From the IMG/VR virus record IMGVR_UViG_3300035208_003482: 64,000 bases of DNA; one strand, 5' to 3'. Below, piece after piece: positions 7,290 to 14,652 of the stretch. The notes beneath the pieces are model-generated. The model searched no databases, was not told the DNA's origin, and worked only from the letters and a program-made list of their open reading frames with translations. The first letter of the stretch is position 1. Each line of letters opens with the position of its first letter. The position numbers were made by a program, and so were the translations under genes. Source of the stretch: a virus.

Positions 7290-8365
7290 TAATCATCCAA
7301 GATTACACCAAAATCAATTGGTATTCTCTTAATTAATTGAATATTCTCAACTGGAACATTGTTACCAAGAATGAGTTTAGTAAGTACTTCGCGAGCTTCT
7401 TTTGCAGAAGACAGTGTTACAAACAACTTGTCATCAATGAAAATGGCAAATTGCCCGGCAGCTAGAGCTGATGAAATCTTTACAGTTGCTTGAGGCTCCT
7501 CAGCCTCTTCGGATTTCTCTTCCGAAAGATCAGGAGGTTCACCCTCATAATCTTCGTGCATCTTTTCTTCATCTTCTTCGGAAGATGAAGTAAGTTCATA
7601 CTCTTTTGCTTCAAATTCAAGCTTTAACTGATCAATAACATCATTGACCAATTGACCAACTGCAACTCTTTCAGCAGATGGAATCTTGGAGAACTGTATA
7701 AGGATATCACTCAGGATACCGTTCTTACCAAGAACCCTAGATTTAAGATCGGCAAAATCATCTAACGAATCCATCACTGACAGTTCTTCAGTGACTTCGG
7801 TCAGCATAACTTGAAGTTGATGCTCTAGGTTTTTACGAACTGAACTTTCAAGATCCTTTAGTGGATTCATTCCCTGAAGTGTTTCAACATGGTTTTGAAC
7901 CGCATCACCATCTTCTTCAGAAACAGTCTCTGGCCAATTGTTATCAACCATTTGTGATTTTGAATTCTTTGTATCCGGTAAACCAGTTACTTCTTTCGTT
8001 GCCCAAGCCGTTTCTACCTGCCCAACAGATACGAAATTGTTCTTTGGCGGTATAAAACCATCATCACTAAAATTCTGCTGAGCAGATACTACTGGTATTC
8101 CTTTCTTAAGAACAAGGTTAGATGATTGTTTTTTGTTTGGATCTGATGCTTTAATAACAACAGGCTTATTAGAAACTTCTTTCATGATAGGAAAGTCCCC
8201 TTTATTAGTTGGTTGAGGTGCAACTTTAGGAAGTCCAAACTCATCATGAAGAAGTGACTTACCACCATCCTTTGGCTCATAGTCAAGCCTTTGGTATTCT
8301 GGTGGTTGGCGCTTTGCATCCAAAATGCGTCGAACTCTATTTCCTCGAAGATCTTCAGTCATCAA
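7289..8365 (-). CDS. Hypothetical acidic protein
   Basis: ORF. Stop/start overlap with its neighbours. Confidence 0.3.
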   Translation of the reverse strand: MMTEDLRGNRVRRILDAKRQPPEYQRLDYEPKDGGKSLLHDEFGLPKVAPQPTNKGDFPIMKEVSNKPVVIKASDPNKKQSSNLVLKKGIPVVSAQQNFSDDGFIPPKNNFVSVGQVETAWATKEVTGLPDTKNSKSQMVDNNWPETVSEEDGDAVQNHVETLQGMNPLKDLESSVRKNLEHQLQVMLTEVTEELSVMDSLDDFADLKSRVLGKNGILSDILIQFSKIPSAERVAVGQLVNDVIDQLKLEFEAKEYELTSSSEEDEEKMHEDYEGEPPDLSEEKSEEAEEPQATVKISSALAAGQFAIFIDDKLFVTLSSAKEAREVLTKLILGNNVPVENIQLIKRIPIDFGVILDD

Positions 8366-8687
8366 TTACCCCTGCAGATTTTTCTTCTTTGAGAATTCTC
8401 TTCTGAGCCTTCTGTTTTTGACTATGATCCCATTCGCCTGACTTCATCATTTGATCACGCCTCTCTGCCATTAAGCGCCTTGCAATTGCTTCTCTAGACT
8501 TACGCCTCTTCTTTATAGATGGCTTCTCATACGCTGAGCGTTCCTTTAACTGTCCAATAACTCTTTCACGTTGAAAGAGCGTCTTAAACCTTCGAGCAGC
8601 GTACTCGAAATCTTCACGAGAAGAGCCCTCAACAACAACTTCGATTGGTCTAACCCACGACTTATCAAACTCTTTTGGTGCAACCAT
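8355..8687 (-). CDS. rpsU: Ribosomal protein S21-like
   Basis: 'FEYAARRFKTLFQRERVIGQLKERSAYEKPSIKKRRKSREA' matches the bS21 core pattern (ALRRFKR...FYEKPS..RK). Extended basic C-terminus. Confidence 0.5.
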   Translation of the reverse strand: MVAPKEFDKSWVRPIEVVVEGSSREDFEYAARRFKTLFQRERVIGQLKERSAYEKPSIKKRRKSREAIARRLMAERRDQMMKSGEWDHSQKQKAQKRILKEEKSAGVIDD

Positions 8688-9054: not shown

Positions 9055-11190
9055 TCACTTAAGAACCTTTTCTACCTTCTTTGAATAAACTGGTGGAGTT
9101 ACCTTCTTCGGGTCCAACCAATTTATTTCTGCATCATCTGGTAAATCCTCGACATGTTTGCAATTTGGATATCCCATACATGCTAATACCATAGTTTCTT
9201 TCATCAATGTTGCATATAACTCATTACCACAGTCTGAACATTTCTTTCCAAATGGCATCTTTCTCTTACCCATACACTTAGGATATTCCGAACATGAATA
9301 AAATGGTCCAAACTTACCATCAGGTCTTGGCACCATAGGTGCACCGCAATCTGGACACTTAACAGTTTCATCTACTTTAGCCCTTTGTGATTTAGGAACA
9401 ACCTTACCATCTTCGATATTGATATTAACAATACCATCACACCCAGCTTTATACTTTATACAACCAGCAAAAAATCCATACTTAGACTTCCTAACAACCG
9501 TATCACTACCACACTTAGGACATGGAATTCCAGTTGCCATACCTTGACTTCCACGAGCTTTCTGAAATTCTTCCTTGAACCCATTAAAGAACTCAGACAT
9601 CATACCAACATAATCAAGCTTACCTTCCGCAATAAGATCGAGTTTCTTCTCCATCTGTGCGGTGTACATATAATCCATGAAGGTAAATGAATCTTTCAAA
9701 TCATCAATTACCTTCTTTCCCAATTCTGTTGGTAAGAATCCATTGGCTGTATCTTTTACGTATTTACGAGTAGATATACGTGCAATGATAGATGCGTATG
9801 TACTAGGACGACCAATCTCTTTAGCTTCAAGCTCTCGAATAAGAGATGCCTCAGTGTATCGAGGGGATGGTTTGGTTTGAGACTTATCAACCTTAATACC
9901 AGGAGGTTGGATTAGTTTTACTGTGTCTGCTTTTACAAGCTGAGGTAATTCTACATCCTTATCCTTTTTCACAAATGGTTTCGCAACTACCATCCAACCT
10001 TCTTCTCGTTGGATTTTACCTTCAGCTATTAGATTATGTTCCCCAGCTTTGATAGTCACTTTGACTGTATCAAATTCTGCTGGAGTCATTTGAGAAGCAA
10101 CAAACGTTCTCCAAATAAGATTGTAGATCTTTGCTTCATCACCAGTTAAAGCAATCTTGTCAGGATGATCCTCTATATGAGTTGGTCGAATAGCCTCGTG
10201 TGCATCCTGTGCAGCTTCTTTGTTCTTGAACTCATTCGGAGTCTTGGGAATACTAAAACCTTGTTTGGTAATGTAATCCCTAACACCAACTATAGACTCT
10301 TCGCTGTTTCGAGTAGAGTCAGTTCTAATGTAAGTAACATGTCCAGCTTCATACAACTTCTGAGCTGCCGCCATTGTTCGATCAGATTTGATCTTCAATT
10401 TTGTACTAGCTTCCTGTTGCAGCATTGATGTTGTAAGAGGTGCAGGCGGCTTGCGCTCCAATCTCTTAGACTCAATATCCTGGACCTTGAAGTCTTTACG
10501 AGGATCAAGGTCCTTCTTAATATCTTTTGCCTCATCCTCGTTATCAATCCTTCGAGGATATTTGGCCAGGAATTTTACCCCATCCTTCTCAAATGTAGCG
10601 GATAGATTCCAATAGACCTCGGGAACGAAAGCTTCAATCTCGCGCTCTCGATCAACAATGATTCTTAGAGCAACAGATTGTACACGGCCTGCGCTTAACT
10701 TATCGCCAAGCTTCTTAGATATGTATGGTGAGACCATGAAACCCACAATACGATCTAAAACACGCCGAGCTTGTTGAGCATCAAACAGGTTCTTATCAAA
10801 CTCTTTAGGATTAGCAATAGCTTGTAATAAAGCTTTCTTGGTAATCTCATTAAATGTAATACGCTTTAATGGCTTATTTAGGTTTTTTAATTGGTCAGCT
10901 ATATGAAACGCTATTGCTTCGCCTTCTTTATCAGAATCAGAAGCTACATAAATTTCATCAGATGTTCTTGCAGCGTCTATAATTGATTTAATCACATCCC
11001 TTTTATCCGCAATAACCTCATATCTAGGAGCAAATCCATTCTGGATATCAATCCCAATATCATCACCACCCCTTCCATTAGAAAGATCAACAATATGTCC
11101 AAATGTTGGTCTAATTACAAAATTAGATCCTACAAAACTTTGTATTGTTTTTATTTTCCCGGGAGACTCAACTATTATAAGTTTTGTCAT
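9055..11190 (-). CDS. topA: DNA topoisomerase I (type IA, TopA-like) with C-terminal C4 zinc ribbons
   Basis: N-terminal Toprim '[13 protein letters not shown]...GHIVDL', '[11 protein letters not shown]'. Multiple 'CPKCG...C..C' ribbons at the C-terminus. Confidence 0.85.
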
Positions 11191-11426
11191 CTATTTCCCT
11201 TTAAAAGATTTTCTTTAGCAGAAAGAGGTCTTAAGTTATCACCACCCCTTCCATTAGAAAGGTCAACAATGTGTCCCATTGTTGGGCGCACAGTATATCC
11301 ACTCCCCAAAAGCTTGGAGATGGTTTTCATCTTCGCAGGAGATTCGACAATCAGTAGAGCGTTTGACATCACCCTTTTAGGGTGGCTTTCAAGGATTCCT
11401 CGACCCCAATCCTGGCGATCAGCCAA
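11187..11426 (-). pseudogene. Remnant 5' fragment (Toprim N-terminus) of a second, divergent topA allele
   Basis: '[40 protein letters not shown]' parallels the topA N-terminus. About 36 nt are near-identical to the topA 5' end. Its stop TGA overlaps the topA ATG (ATGA). Confidence 0.55.
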
Positions 11427-11557
11427 TCAACTCTACGAGCAACATCACGATACATCAATGAGTCTTCCTCATTCTTACAGGCAAAAGACTTTAACATGCA
11501 ATCATTCGAGAGATCTTGTAAAAGATTAGATGCGTACTTCAAAAACATATTGGTATA

Positions 11558-12337
11558 CTAGGTTATTGATTCCTTCACAAGTCTTTTGTTTCCAACTCGT
11601 GAATAGAATCCTGTCTTAGAATTAAGTTCCCACACGTAAAGTTTCTCGGCCTGACTTCCATCAAGCATCATGTATTTATCATGTACAAATGGTTTACCTT
11701 CAGGTTCTCCATTATGTCCAGTTACAATTATCTTTTTCCATGAACACCTTATTTTGTTCTTAGCTAAATTACACATATGTGTATAAACAGATCTGTCCCA
11801 AGCTAAAACTTTTGGTTCTTGATTTTGGAGCGGTATGAATGGATCACACCCACCATGTACGAAAATGTAGTTATCATTTTCATAATATGGTAAAAGAGAT
11901 TCCATGAACTTGATATGTTTATCTGGAAAGAATCTCTTTATAGAGTTTCTTGAGATCAAGTATGGGTTTTCAACTTCTGAGTTAGCTCTTTGGAGATAAC
12001 CCATAAAGGTTTCCTCCCCTCCATTACTCATCCACATATTGTACGAACGAATTGAAGCATCTGGCTGAATAGCTTCCAATAACATAAGTTCATGATTACC
12101 AAGAAGAGTAATCACTTGATCTGGTGCTTCTTGTTTTGTTTTGATAAGTACGTCTATTACTTTATGAGAATCAAACCTTCTATCAACATAATCTCCAAGA
12201 AATACAAGCATATCCATACTACCACCAGTTCTACGCAGTGGTAGTATCCTTTTTAAGATTAGTTCTAACTCATCATACATTCCGTGTATATCCGGAATGA
12301 CGTACAAGCAACTATCTGCTGGTCTCCATTTACTCAA
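11558..12337 (-). CDS. Calcineurin-like metallophosphoesterase (Ser/Thr phosphatase-like)
   Basis: 'DIHG', 'LGDYVDRR', 'GNHE' phosphoesterase motifs. Confidence 0.6.
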   Translation of the reverse strand: MSKWRPADSCLYVIPDIHGMYDELELILKRILPLRRTGGSMDMLVFLGDYVDRRFDSHKVIDVLIKTKQEAPDQVITLLGNHELMLLEAIQPDASIRSYNMWMSNGGEETFMGYLQRANSEVENPYLISRNSIKRFFPDKHIKFMESLLPYYENDNYIFVHGGCDPFIPLQNQEPKVLAWDRSVYTHMCNLAKNKIRCSWKKIIVTGHNGEPEGKPFVHDKYMMLDGSQAEKLYVWELNSKTGFYSRVGNKRLVKESIT

Positions 12338-12378: not shown

Positions 12379-14652
12379 ATGCCTATTTATTTTTCGCCTC
12401 AAAAGGCCATGTCTCAATTAGTTCTGTCGAAAGACCAAGAAATTGCGTACAAAACCATTGCTAAATGGTTGGCAGATGGCGGTGTTGTTCACCCAAAACA
12501 GAAAGACCCTCAGCTATTAAGTCTTGGTGGTTATGCCGGCTCTGGAAAAGCGCTAGATATCAATACTCCTATACCAACTCCAAATGGTTGGACTATAATG
12601 GGAGAATTAAAAATTGGTGATGTAGTTTTCTCAGATGATGGAAAACCATGCTCAATCATTGCAATATCAGAGATTATGACTGGCCATGATTGTTTTGAAT
12701 TTGAATTTTCTGATGGAACAAAAGTCATTGCAGATTCAGATCATATTTGGAAAACTAAAAACTATAAAGAAAGAACTAAAAACAAACAACCAAAAGAAAG
12801 AATATCTAAAGAACTATTTAATACACAAAGAATAGGAAAACACAAACGTGTAAATCATTCTATTGATATTGTACCTGCTATAGAAATTGAAAGTAAAAAA
12901 CTTCCAATTGATCCATATTTACTTGGAGTTTGGCTTGGCGATGGCGCTAAATCTATGGCAAGAATATCAAGCATTGATAATGAAATTATAGATTCATTTA
13001 AACATGAATATAACATAAACAAAGTTGCTGGAGAAAATTGCGATTGGGGAATTAGTTCAAAAAATAATGGTCCATCATTAAAAGTTCAATTAAGAACATT
13101 GAATCTATTGTTTAATAAACATATTCCAACTATTTATTTGAGAAGTTCAAAAGAACAAAGAATGTCACTTCTTCGTGGTTTGATGGATACCGATGGAACT
13201 GTTTCTAAAGATACAGGAATACCATCATTTACCAATACAAATAAACAATTAGCTATTGATACTTTAGAACTAATTAGATCTCTTGGGTTTCATTCTAAAC
13301 TAACAACAGGCAAAGCTAAACTAAATGGTATTGTAACGTCTGATAAATATACCATACATTTCTCAGCAAATGAACCAGTTTTCAGGTTGTTAAGGAAAAA
13401 ACGCCTTCAAAAGATATTTAACTTTAGAGCAACATATGGAAGAAAATACATAACAAATGTACGTAAAATTGATTCTGTTCCAGTCAAATGTATAGCTGTT
13501 GACTCTTCTTCGAAAATGTATTTATGTTCTGATGGGTTTACTCCCACACATAATACAACACTCGTATCTACGATTGCTAAAGAGTTTGGATCAGCTATTC
13601 GCTTCGCTTTCTGCGCTTTGTCAGGAAGAGCTGCTAGTATTCTTGGTGTGAAGCTTCAAAATCAAGGTATTCGTTTCAAAGATGACGGACACTATTGTGG
13701 TACTATCCATCGACTGATTTATCGACCCATAGAAAATAGTGAAGGTGAAGTTATCTTCTGGGCAAAGAAAGAATCATTGGATTACGATGTTATCGTAATG
13801 GATGAAGCTTCCATGGTTTCGGAAGATATCTTTCGAGATCTTAAATCATACGGTATCGATATTTTGGCTGTTGGAGATCATGGTCAACTACCACCTATCG
13901 AAGGTAAATTCTCCTTGATGTCTGATCCTATCTTGAAGCTTGAAAAGATTCATCGACAAGCAGCTGATAATCCAATCATAAGTCTTTCGATGCACATTCG
14001 AGAGAGTGGTAGAATACCAAAAGATTATACCAACAACGATAAAGTTCAAATTGTTAAAAAGGGAGAATACATAGATTATCTGAAGGATATCTATTCCAAA
14101 AGTCAAGATCCTGAAAAGACAATTGATACAGCTGTTTTGTGTTACACAAACGCAACCAGATCCAAATTAAATATCATGATTCGTAATATGGTTTTTGGAA
14201 ATATATCTTCAATACCATTAGTTAATGATATTGTGATTTGTCTTAGAAACGCCGTCAATAACAGAAAAGTTCCTTTGTACAATGGGTTTAGAGGATATCT
14301 ATTAAATGGTGTTCAAGATGAAGGTGATTTCTATGAGGGTAATATTAGATTCCCTTATGAAGGATTTGATACCAATGTGAATAATTTATTGAAGTATCAA
14401 TTTGGATACAATAAAACATTTAGTTCATTTCAAGAACTTGAGAACTTTGGAATGGATGTAAAGCACTGGTCCGAGGTTGGTCTTTTATTTGATTACGGAT
14501 ATTCGATGACAGTTCATAAAGCACAAGGATCTCAGATGAGTAATGTTGTGCTGTTTAATGAACGCCCAGCTCCGGTATCGGACGACAACTACAAACGCTG
14601 GCTCTATACCGCGACCACCAGATCCTCGGACAAGCTAACAATTATTTTGTGA
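12379..14652 (+). CDS. SF1B DNA helicase (RecD/Dda/Pif1-like) with an intein inserted in Walker A
   Basis: Extein 'GYAGSGK|TTL' (P-loop), 'MDEASMV', 'VGDHGQLPPI', 'TVHKAQGSQ'. Confidence 0.75.
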   Translation: MPIYFSPQKAMSQLVLSKDQEIAYKTIAKWLADGGVVHPKQKDPQLLSLGGYAGSGKALDINTPIPTPNGWTIMGELKIGDVVFSDDGKPCSIIAISEIMTGHDCFEFEFSDGTKVIADSDHIWKTKNYKERTKNKQPKERISKELFNTQRIGKHKRVNHSIDIVPAIEIESKKLPIDPYLLGVWLGDGAKSMARISSIDNEIIDSFKHEYNINKVAGENCDWGISSKNNGPSLKVQLRTLNLLFNKHIPTIYLRSSKEQRMSLLRGLMDTDGTVSKDTGIPSFTNTNKQLAIDTLELIRSLGFHSKLTTGKAKLNGIVTSDKYTIHFSANEPVFRLLRKKRLQKIFNFRATYGRKYITNVRKIDSVPVKCIAVDSSSKMYLCSDGFTPTHNTTLVSTIAKEFGSAIRFAFCALSGRAASILGVKLQNQGIRFKDDGHYCGTIHRLIYRPIENSEGEVIFWAKKESLDYDVIVMDEASMVSEDIFRDLKSYGIDILAVGDHGQLPPIEGKFSLMSDPILKLEKIHRQAADNPIISLSMHIRESGRIPKDYTNNDKVQIVKKGEYIDYLKDIYSKSQDPEKTIDTAVLCYTNATRSKLNIMIRNMVFGNISSIPLVNDIVICLRNAVNNRKVPLYNGFRGYLLNGVQDEGDFYEGNIRFPYEGFDTNVNNLLKYQFGYNKTFSSFQELENFGMDVKHWSEVGLLFDYGYSMTVHKAQGSQMSNVVLFNERPAPVSDDNYKRWLYTATTRSSDKLTIIL
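12550..13554 (+). mobile_element. Intein (about 335 aa) with LAGLIDADG homing-endonuclease domain, inserted between K and T of the helicase P-loop
   Basis: Starts 'ALDINTPIPTPNGW' (block A with Ala1) and ends '...THN' + Thr(+1). LAGLIDADG motifs 'LLGVWLGDGA' and 'LLRGLMDTDGT'. The insert is markedly more AT-rich than the exteins. Confidence 0.7.

Follow-up and report, generated by a model that had tools for sequence, protein, structure and literature searches.

The stretch of DNA analysed here, referred to as the window, comprises the 64,000 nucleotides of the IMG/VR virus record IMGVR_UViG_3300035208_003482, and the subject of this report is a small open reading frame (ORF) lying directly 5' of topA, the gene for a type IA topoisomerase. 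On the minus strand, the gene order is a metallophosphatase gene (12337–11558; Pfam Metallophos), a conserved 59-aa ORF (11369–11548) that immediately precedes topA in all relatives, the small ORF (11187–11426; 79 aa when read from a TTG) and an intact topA of 711 aa (9055–11190), the product of which, P0001, carries the precomputed Pfam domains Toprim, Topoisom_bac and Zn_ribbon_Top1. An earlier note, made from the sequence alone, had described the 79-aa ORF as a second Toprim N-terminus upstream of topA, and the ORF indeed matches Pfam Toprim with an E value of 8e-7 over profile positions 2–37 of 96. The biologically meaningful start of the small ORF is the ATG at 11369 and not the TTG. This ATG is overlapped by the stop codon of the 59-aa ORF (TGATG), and the TGA of the small ORF overlaps the ATG of topA (ATGA), as the note had read it. 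From the ATG, the small ORF has 60 codons, comprising 44 topA-like codons (11238–11369, GC content 0.46) and an unrelated tail of 16 codons, which with the stop occupies 11187–11237. It lacks the DxD motif and the topoisomerase core with the catalytic Tyr; the 60-aa ORF is a gene fragment, not a topoisomerase. We propose, with a probability of about 0.88, that a free-standing HNH homing-endonuclease gene (HEG) directed at phage topA left this ORF behind as its scar.

The fragment and the start of the intact topA are two head-to-tail copies separated by 176 nt. The near-identical block pointed out in the earlier note lies at 11238–11273 in the fragment and at 11062–11097 in the intact gene, and its identity of 34/36 is as stated there, though the coordinates given were off by 10 and 2 nt; shuffling the window 100 times produced no such match. 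The note had allowed that the similarity might be limited to this block. However, homology of the copies spans all 43–44 codons, with DNA identity of about 59% (55/93) upstream of the block and about 95% inside it, and the protein homology is clear upstream of the block. The fragment is also richer in GC than the topA start, at 0.46 versus 0.28 for the opening 90 nt of intact topA, in agreement with the note; the value for the whole window is 0.38.

The relatives available for comparison are metagenomic contigs, with related contigs of up to 435–496 kb. A blastn search of INPHARED phages with the 3.5-kb region gave no match, and there is thus no annotated relative to compare; an exact scan of IMG/VR for the scar junction gave nothing. 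The six relatives without the HEG (L001–L004, L008 and L009) have the phosphatase gene upstream, a 59–61-aa ORF and then topA directly, with no second Toprim piece upstream of topA, although the earlier note had considered that the small ORF might be found in related genomes as an independent gene. Their topA begins M[ST]NAL[VL][IV]VESP..., and the position of the fragment relative to the 59-aa ORF is that of the topA start in these genomes. The fragment agrees with the N-termini of P0003 and P0004, from relatives with 91% identity in topA, at 43/44 residues (30/31 over the first 31) and with that of P0006 at 42/44, and the first 30 residues of the intact topA agree with those of the closest relatives at 16/30. 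At the nucleotide level, compared to L008, the fragment is identical at 86/96 positions and the first 93 nt of the intact topA at 58/93. P0003, P0005 and P0006 are mutually 93–97% identical over the N-terminal stretch, and the background identity across the rest of topA is 86%. These identities, together with the position, show that the GC-rich fragment is the original topA 5' end in its original place, left behind as the earlier note had supposed, and not an import, the newcomer being codons 1–31 of the intact gene (11098–11190, GC 0.28). From nt 94, the intact topA is native-like again (36–38/39 identical to L008), and the strongly foreign tract ends at codon 31.

The polarity could also be the reverse, with the AT-rich start being native and the GC-rich fragment having been imported with the upstream genes from another phage, and the local GC peak (0.47–0.49) that spans the fragment together with the 3' portion of the 59-aa ORF is in keeping with such an import. 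However, similar GC values occur elsewhere within topA, the upstream genes are equally related (83–88%) in the window, L007 and L008, and the fragment-type start follows the 59-aa ORF not only in the six closest relatives, whose topA is 79–91% identical, but also in more distant ones. An imported fragment is thus very improbable.

The state that would have preceded the scar is seen in L007, the closest relative, whose topA product (P0002) is 97% identical to P0001 and has the same new N-terminus. In L007, the 59-aa ORF is followed by an 84-codon native fragment that terminates at the Toprim DxD motif, with ...DEIYVV and a stop codon; after a gap of 12 nt come a 250-aa ORF (GC 0.26), an ATGA overlap and topA. 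L105, an independent contig from JGI, has 100% identity to L007 over 3216 bp, a stretch that takes in the junction of the fragment and the ORF. The 250-aa ORF ends with ...WQLDHIIPQS... followed by the same 16 residues as the tail in the window, and the tail is therefore the 3' end of the endonuclease gene, with its last 16 codons and stop; this is also the stretch that the earlier note had seen diverging after GGD. Over the tail and the first 93 nt of topA, the window (11098–11237) is identical to L007 (3733–3872) at 140/140 positions, and in tblastn the sole match of the HEG on the window is the remnant at 11187–11237. In its AT-richness, the new topA 5' end resembles the HEG rather than the native sequence.

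Without any mobile element, the topA 5' region might have been duplicated in tandem within this genome, one copy then diverging rapidly, which would account for two head-to-tail copies 176 nt apart that share a nearly identical 36-nt core. Nevertheless, the spacer is the exact 3' end of the endonuclease gene that lies between the copies in L007, the composition of the new copy matches that of the HEG, and the first 93 nt show 35/93 differences, compared to 0/140 from L007 over the same stretch, which leaves this explanation with hardly any probability. Still less credible is an artefact of metagenome assembly joining two strain variants of topA. Strain mixtures can make spurious tandem joins at shared 36-nt repeats, but the arrangement is 100% identical in a separate JGI contig (L005, 1944 bp), and P0001 is recorded on three contigs, from JGI, Logan and ENA. 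Moreover, the junction leads into HEG sequence and not into a topA variant, and the L007 state was assembled twice independently, in L007 and L105.

The step from the L007 state to that of the window can be traced by blastn, in which L007 1600–2904 aligns with window 12549–11237 and L007 3729–6033 with window 11241–8939, the two pieces overlapping by 5 nt in the window. The 824 bp missing from the window correspond to L007 2905–3728. The overlap, TGATA (11237–11241, minus strand), is present both in the native fragment and in the 3' part of the L007 HEG, and since it lies on both sides of the gap, the loss is a microhomology deletion, by which the tail was fused in frame to the native fragment. 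Between the window and L007, the fragments show six synonymous and no non-synonymous differences in 40 codons. As synonymous-only differences arise in functional genes, this pattern suggests for the fragments either an origin in two different native alleles or reshuffling with such alleles.

The two copies can also be followed beyond the foreign tract. The 36-nt block opens that section of the duplication where the two copies have clade ancestry in common; this section runs to codon 84 in L007 and is cut at codon 44 in the window by the deletion, so that the block is what remains of a longer duplication of 84 codons. Both copies in the window carry GGTGGTGAT, whereas those in L007 differ there; a short conversion between the window copies or a slip in the GGT repeat may be the origin of the common sequence.

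The 250-aa ORF of L007 matches PHROG 7091 'HNH endonuclease' (E 6.6e-9) and PHROG 1035 'endonuclease VII' (E 9.4e-7). In an alignment of 35 homologues, D209-H210, N235 and N244 are invariant, as are C35 and C38 among the N-terminal Cys residues, with C13 and C16 present in at least 90%. The DH...N...N pattern corresponds, judged from the alignment, to the HNH pattern, and an AlphaFold model (pLDDT 91.6) places two strands and a helix at residues 206–246 in a beta-beta-alpha arrangement. The Pfam HNH_4 match is sub-threshold, being below the gathering score, and a profile search of PDB gave nothing relevant. In Foldseek against PDB, the HNH domains of colicin, pyocin and Cas9 rank first, at E values of 0.8–9 that are not significant. 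On the profile and motif evidence, the 250-aa ORF is taken as an HNH-type nuclease. It has its own start and stop and lies outside any intron or intein; Rfam gave no intron hit at E <= 1 in L007 2400–4200 or in window 10800–11700. A homing endonuclease had been offered in the earlier note as a plausible cause, and an intact HNH-like gene at the same place in a 97% relative bears this out.

The HEG is present in L007 and L105, absent from L008, L009 and L001–L004, and reduced to the remnant in the window. Its six other closest homologues (48–58% identity; L010–L015) all lie immediately 5' of topA, so that with L007 all seven of the closest subfamily members adjoin topA on its 5' side. The 3' ends of the HEGs in L010–L015 often overlap the topA start, by 8–41 nt, and a duplicated Toprim piece was not found in these six contigs. 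In L012 (3839–4585 / 4545) and L014 (3001–3804 / 3770), the overlap of the HEG with the topA start is 35–41 nt, and because of it topA has been truncated by gene callers (P0042: 692 aa, with an internal Met start). Among more distant members of the family in IMG/VR (L017–L095), 2 of 79 loci are next to topA, and several contigs carry two or three copies, with three, mostly away from topA, on each of the 452-kb IMGVR_UViG_3300035661_000001 and the 85-kb 3300033075_001193. The family comprises at least 900 proteins. Such a distribution is what is commonly seen for families of homing endonucleases that have target-specific subfamilies, and it brings to light a topA-associated, previously unnamed subfamily of a large HNH-like family in huge-phage contigs. 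What these contigs show directly is which three structural states exist, what each piece is and that the HEG subfamily is linked to topA.

Identity between the window and L007 reaches 97–100% in most 90-nt windows of topA nt 1–720, the exceptions being 94% at nt 91–180 and 90% at nt 361–450, and falls to 92% over the remainder of topA and to 83–88% in the flanking DNA. The window, L007 and L008 are about equidistant (81–88%) in the helicase, phosphatase, 59-aa ORF and downstream genes. The identity peak is centred on the cassette formed by the HEG and the new topA start, as expected for co-conversion, and we read the first 720 nt or so of topA (10471–11190) as a co-conversion tract around the HEG. 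The native fragment of L007 ends at topA nt 250, and over the 30 nt that follow, identity to L008 is no more than 21/30. The codons of the Toprim DxD motif, ASDSDKEGE, follow at topA nt 250–285 or thereabouts (10906–10941), and we infer this region as a candidate for the endonuclease target.

The fragment might instead be a retained, functional small gene, either a leader selected for coupling or a peptide made of a Toprim stub that acts in regulation or as a decoy. Its frame is open and overlaps a neighbouring gene at either end, no terminator separates the genes, the HEG tail stayed in frame after the deletion, and all of the differences from L007 mentioned above are synonymous. However, an in-frame fusion has a prior of one in three, the synonymous-only pattern is equally expected if the fragments were inherited from two functional native alleles, and topA has its own Shine–Dalgarno-like site in the tail. 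In addition, the ORF is missing from all HEG-less relatives, and in its two carriers it has 60 and 84 codons with different C-termini. Its Toprim part is only the first strand–helix–strand, with the Glu present and the DxD absent, and a product of this kind cannot be a nuclease or a topoisomerase. A retained gene is accordingly an unlikely explanation, and we prefer to regard the ORF as a scar, namely a non-functional Toprim stub that probably serves only as a translated leader passing ribosomes from the 59-aa ORF into topA. The HEG tail holds the Shine–Dalgarno-like AAGGGA of topA, and the last HEG codons are thus not losable without harming topA expression. Given the stop/start overlaps at both ends and the lack of a terminator, it is plausible that the scar ORF couples the translation of topA to that of the 59-aa ORF; no promoter above chance was found between the genes either.

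Considering these results, we propose the following scenario for the topA locus. The ancestral state would be that of L008, L009 and L001–L004, with the phosphatase gene, the 59-aa ORF and topA. First, a HEG together with the first part of a foreign topA allele may have entered topA about 250 nt from its start, leaving the native 84 codons upstream and a complete topA with a new start downstream, an outcome that would be preserved in L007 and L105. The likeliest route is that the endonuclease cut a HEG-less topA near the Toprim DxD codons (nt 250–285), that the downstream end invaded a HEG-bearing donor and copied back through the donor topA 5' end and the HEG, and that the upstream, unresected end was joined illegitimately just before the ribosome-binding site of the HEG. 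Such one-sided double-strand-break repair would yield exactly the structure of L007; cleavage by the HEG, this repair route and translational coupling are what we infer from the arrangement. Second, two lineages otherwise 12–17% diverged would have come to share, by co-conversion, the cassette together with some 700 nt of the topA sequence downstream of it. Third, in the lineage of the window, the 824-bp deletion at TGATA would have removed codons 45–84 of the fragment and codons 1–234 of the HEG. The last 16 HEG codons, which include the ribosome-binding site of topA, would have been kept in the reading frame of the fragment. The allelic replacement or gene conversion of the topA 5' region suggested in the earlier note is thus upheld as far as the footprint of a replacement is concerned; the event was, however, not a clean gene conversion but an insertion that duplicated the 5' end of its target, followed by a deletion. 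Campbell-type integration of a small circle was also considered and became unnecessary once the HEG had been found.

Several points weigh against this scenario. A donor with the new N-terminus was not found, the best back-translation match in IMG/VR being 59% over 29 residues, and a third protein search gave no more than 10 short Toprim proteins, among them P0241, which is the L007 fragment itself; the foreign origin of codons 1–31 is therefore argued from divergence, composition and linkage. Codons 32–85 of the intact copy are a patchy mosaic in which the three sequences are about equidistant (79–84%), so that this stretch cannot be assigned cleanly to donor or recipient. The in-frame fusion of the tail has a one-in-three chance without selection. 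As for the candidate cut, 4 of the 90 homologues scored have the rare R-to-K variant DKEGE and three of the four are HEG-linked, but the variant is also found in the HEG-less L016, and five HEG-bearing loci keep DREGE. This weakens DKEGE as an immunity marker, and cleavage near topA nt 250–285, at the DxD codons, is only hinted at, by the end of the L007 fragment, the local divergence from L008 and the variant itself. The N-terminus of L013 had seemed donor-like but was dropped, being no nearer to the new end (21/30) than to the native end (20/31). P0242, P0244, P0247 and P0249 are 93–140-aa Toprim-only metagenome proteins annotated 'DNA topoisomerase-1'; they may have been cut off at contig ends or be additional displaced 5' fragments of this kind.

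A self-contained homing cassette may, tentatively, be formed by the HNH gene together with a replacement topA 5' end that brings its own start. Such a cassette, which is less likely than not, would insert in an essential phage gene at the cleavage site of its own enzyme without an intron or intein. As the 5' duplication makes both flanks homologous to the target, the cassette could home like an intron, and the own 5' end of each recipient would become the displaced fragment. A composite cassette is hinted at by the identical cassette in genomes 12–17% diverged and by the synonymous-only differences between the fragments.

Other features of the neighbourhood are as follows. The 59-aa ORF (MFLKYASNLLQD…CMLKSFAC…) is kept directly upstream of topA across the clade, overlapping the topA start; it has 51–78% identity in tblastn in L001–L004, L007–L009, L012 and L013 and no match in Pfam or PHROG. 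Downstream of topA, the window encodes a phage ribosomal protein S21 homologue (8355–8687, minus strand; Pfam Ribosomal_S21, E 1.5e-12), and the S21 gene is conserved at this position in L007, L008, L010–L012 and L016. Between topA and the S21 gene, a small ORF and a gene for an AAA ATPase of about 438 aa are present in L007 (5912–7412), L010–L012, L014 and L016, and this pair is lacking in the window (junction at about 8938/8939) and L008; this is a second presence/absence polymorphism adjoining topA. On the other side, at 12379–14652 on the plus strand, a RecD/UvrD-like helicase of 757 aa is interrupted in its P-loop (…GSGK/ALDINTP … THN/TTLV…) by an intein that has a LAGLIDADG homing-endonuclease domain. 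The helicase is intein-less, at 412 aa, in L001, L007 and L008, and intein-bearing, at 749 aa, in L013.

The locus presents the life cycle of a HEG at one site in one uncultivated large-phage clade, with empty (L008 and L009), invaded (L007 and L105) and scar (window) stages. It suggests how a selfish nuclease may enter an essential gene by supplying a new gene start, without an intron, an intein or gene splitting, and it predicts an endonuclease target at the Toprim DxD codons. For annotation, short 'Toprim domain' ORFs 5' of phage topA are best taken as displaced gene ends and not as new genes. The event is of a known kind, free-standing endonuclease homing with co-conversion, and belongs to ordinary selfish-DNA biology. 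The current understanding of homing is unchanged and is extended to a new host gene and a mirror-image architecture.

Among known systems, free-standing endonucleases of T4 cut away from their own gene, and repair co-converts the flanks; where homology is on one side only, repair is finished illegitimately at microhomologies (PMC2988022). In T4-like phages, the seg and mob genes show intronless homing, marker exclusion and co-conversion, and ectopic HEG insertion in phages has resulted in intergenic residence or split genes (PMC2988022). Like these, the topA-linked HEG stands free, is of the HNH type and occupies a place between or inside conserved genes of DNA metabolism; it is sporadic among close relatives and has a tract of elevated identity alongside, with a putative cleavage site some hundreds of bp from the gene. 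The likeness drawn here is one of arrangement, no sequence relationship to seg or mob being shown. The T4 cases are intergenic or split the host gene, as mobE does in Aeh1 nrdA and mobA in gene 60/39, whereas topA is kept whole through duplication of its 5' end. No phage example of this duplication solution was found in the open-access literature text. As a protein, the 250-aa ORF resembles HNH / His-Me finger nucleases in its profile matches, the DH...N...N motif, the predicted beta-beta-alpha element and an N-terminal four-Cys zinc-ribbon-like element, but differs from them in that a long helical repeat region (residues 36–150) sets its Cys cluster apart from its nuclease motif.

The nearest known parallel is the gene hybrid produced by mORFs (mobile endonuclease ORFs) in fungal mitochondria, of which the topA case is a mirror image. 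Such hybrids are known from atp6 of Allomyces macrogynus and from atp6, atp9, cox2 and nad3 of Glomus sp. (PMC3630166), and partial duplications of atp6 and cob lie beside degenerate LAGLIDADG ORFs in Endoconidiophora (PMC6279837). As with mORFs, the endonuclease ORF travels with a foreign end of its target gene and inserts inside that gene, and the target is kept intact as a hybrid while its native end is displaced as a duplicate. At topA, both a native-like displaced copy and a divergent copy in use are present, with the endonuclease ORF between the copies in L007 and L105. The displaced native piece is 91–98% identical to relatives in mORFs, compared to 90% (nt) and 98% (aa) here, and the inserted piece 64–81%, compared to 62% here. 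Degenerate endonuclease remnants, as in the window, are common among mORFs. However, the setting here is a large bacteriophage instead of an organelle, the nuclease is HNH-like instead of LAGLIDADG or GIY-YIG, and the endonuclease gene has already been deleted from the window, with only its last 16 codons left. Furthermore, mORFs replace the 3' (C-terminal) end, which is read through from the native gene body, whereas at topA the 5' end is replaced, and the cassette must therefore supply a start codon and a ribosome-binding site. If it is real, the composite cassette would thus be the 5'-end, phage-borne counterpart of the mitochondrial mORF elements.

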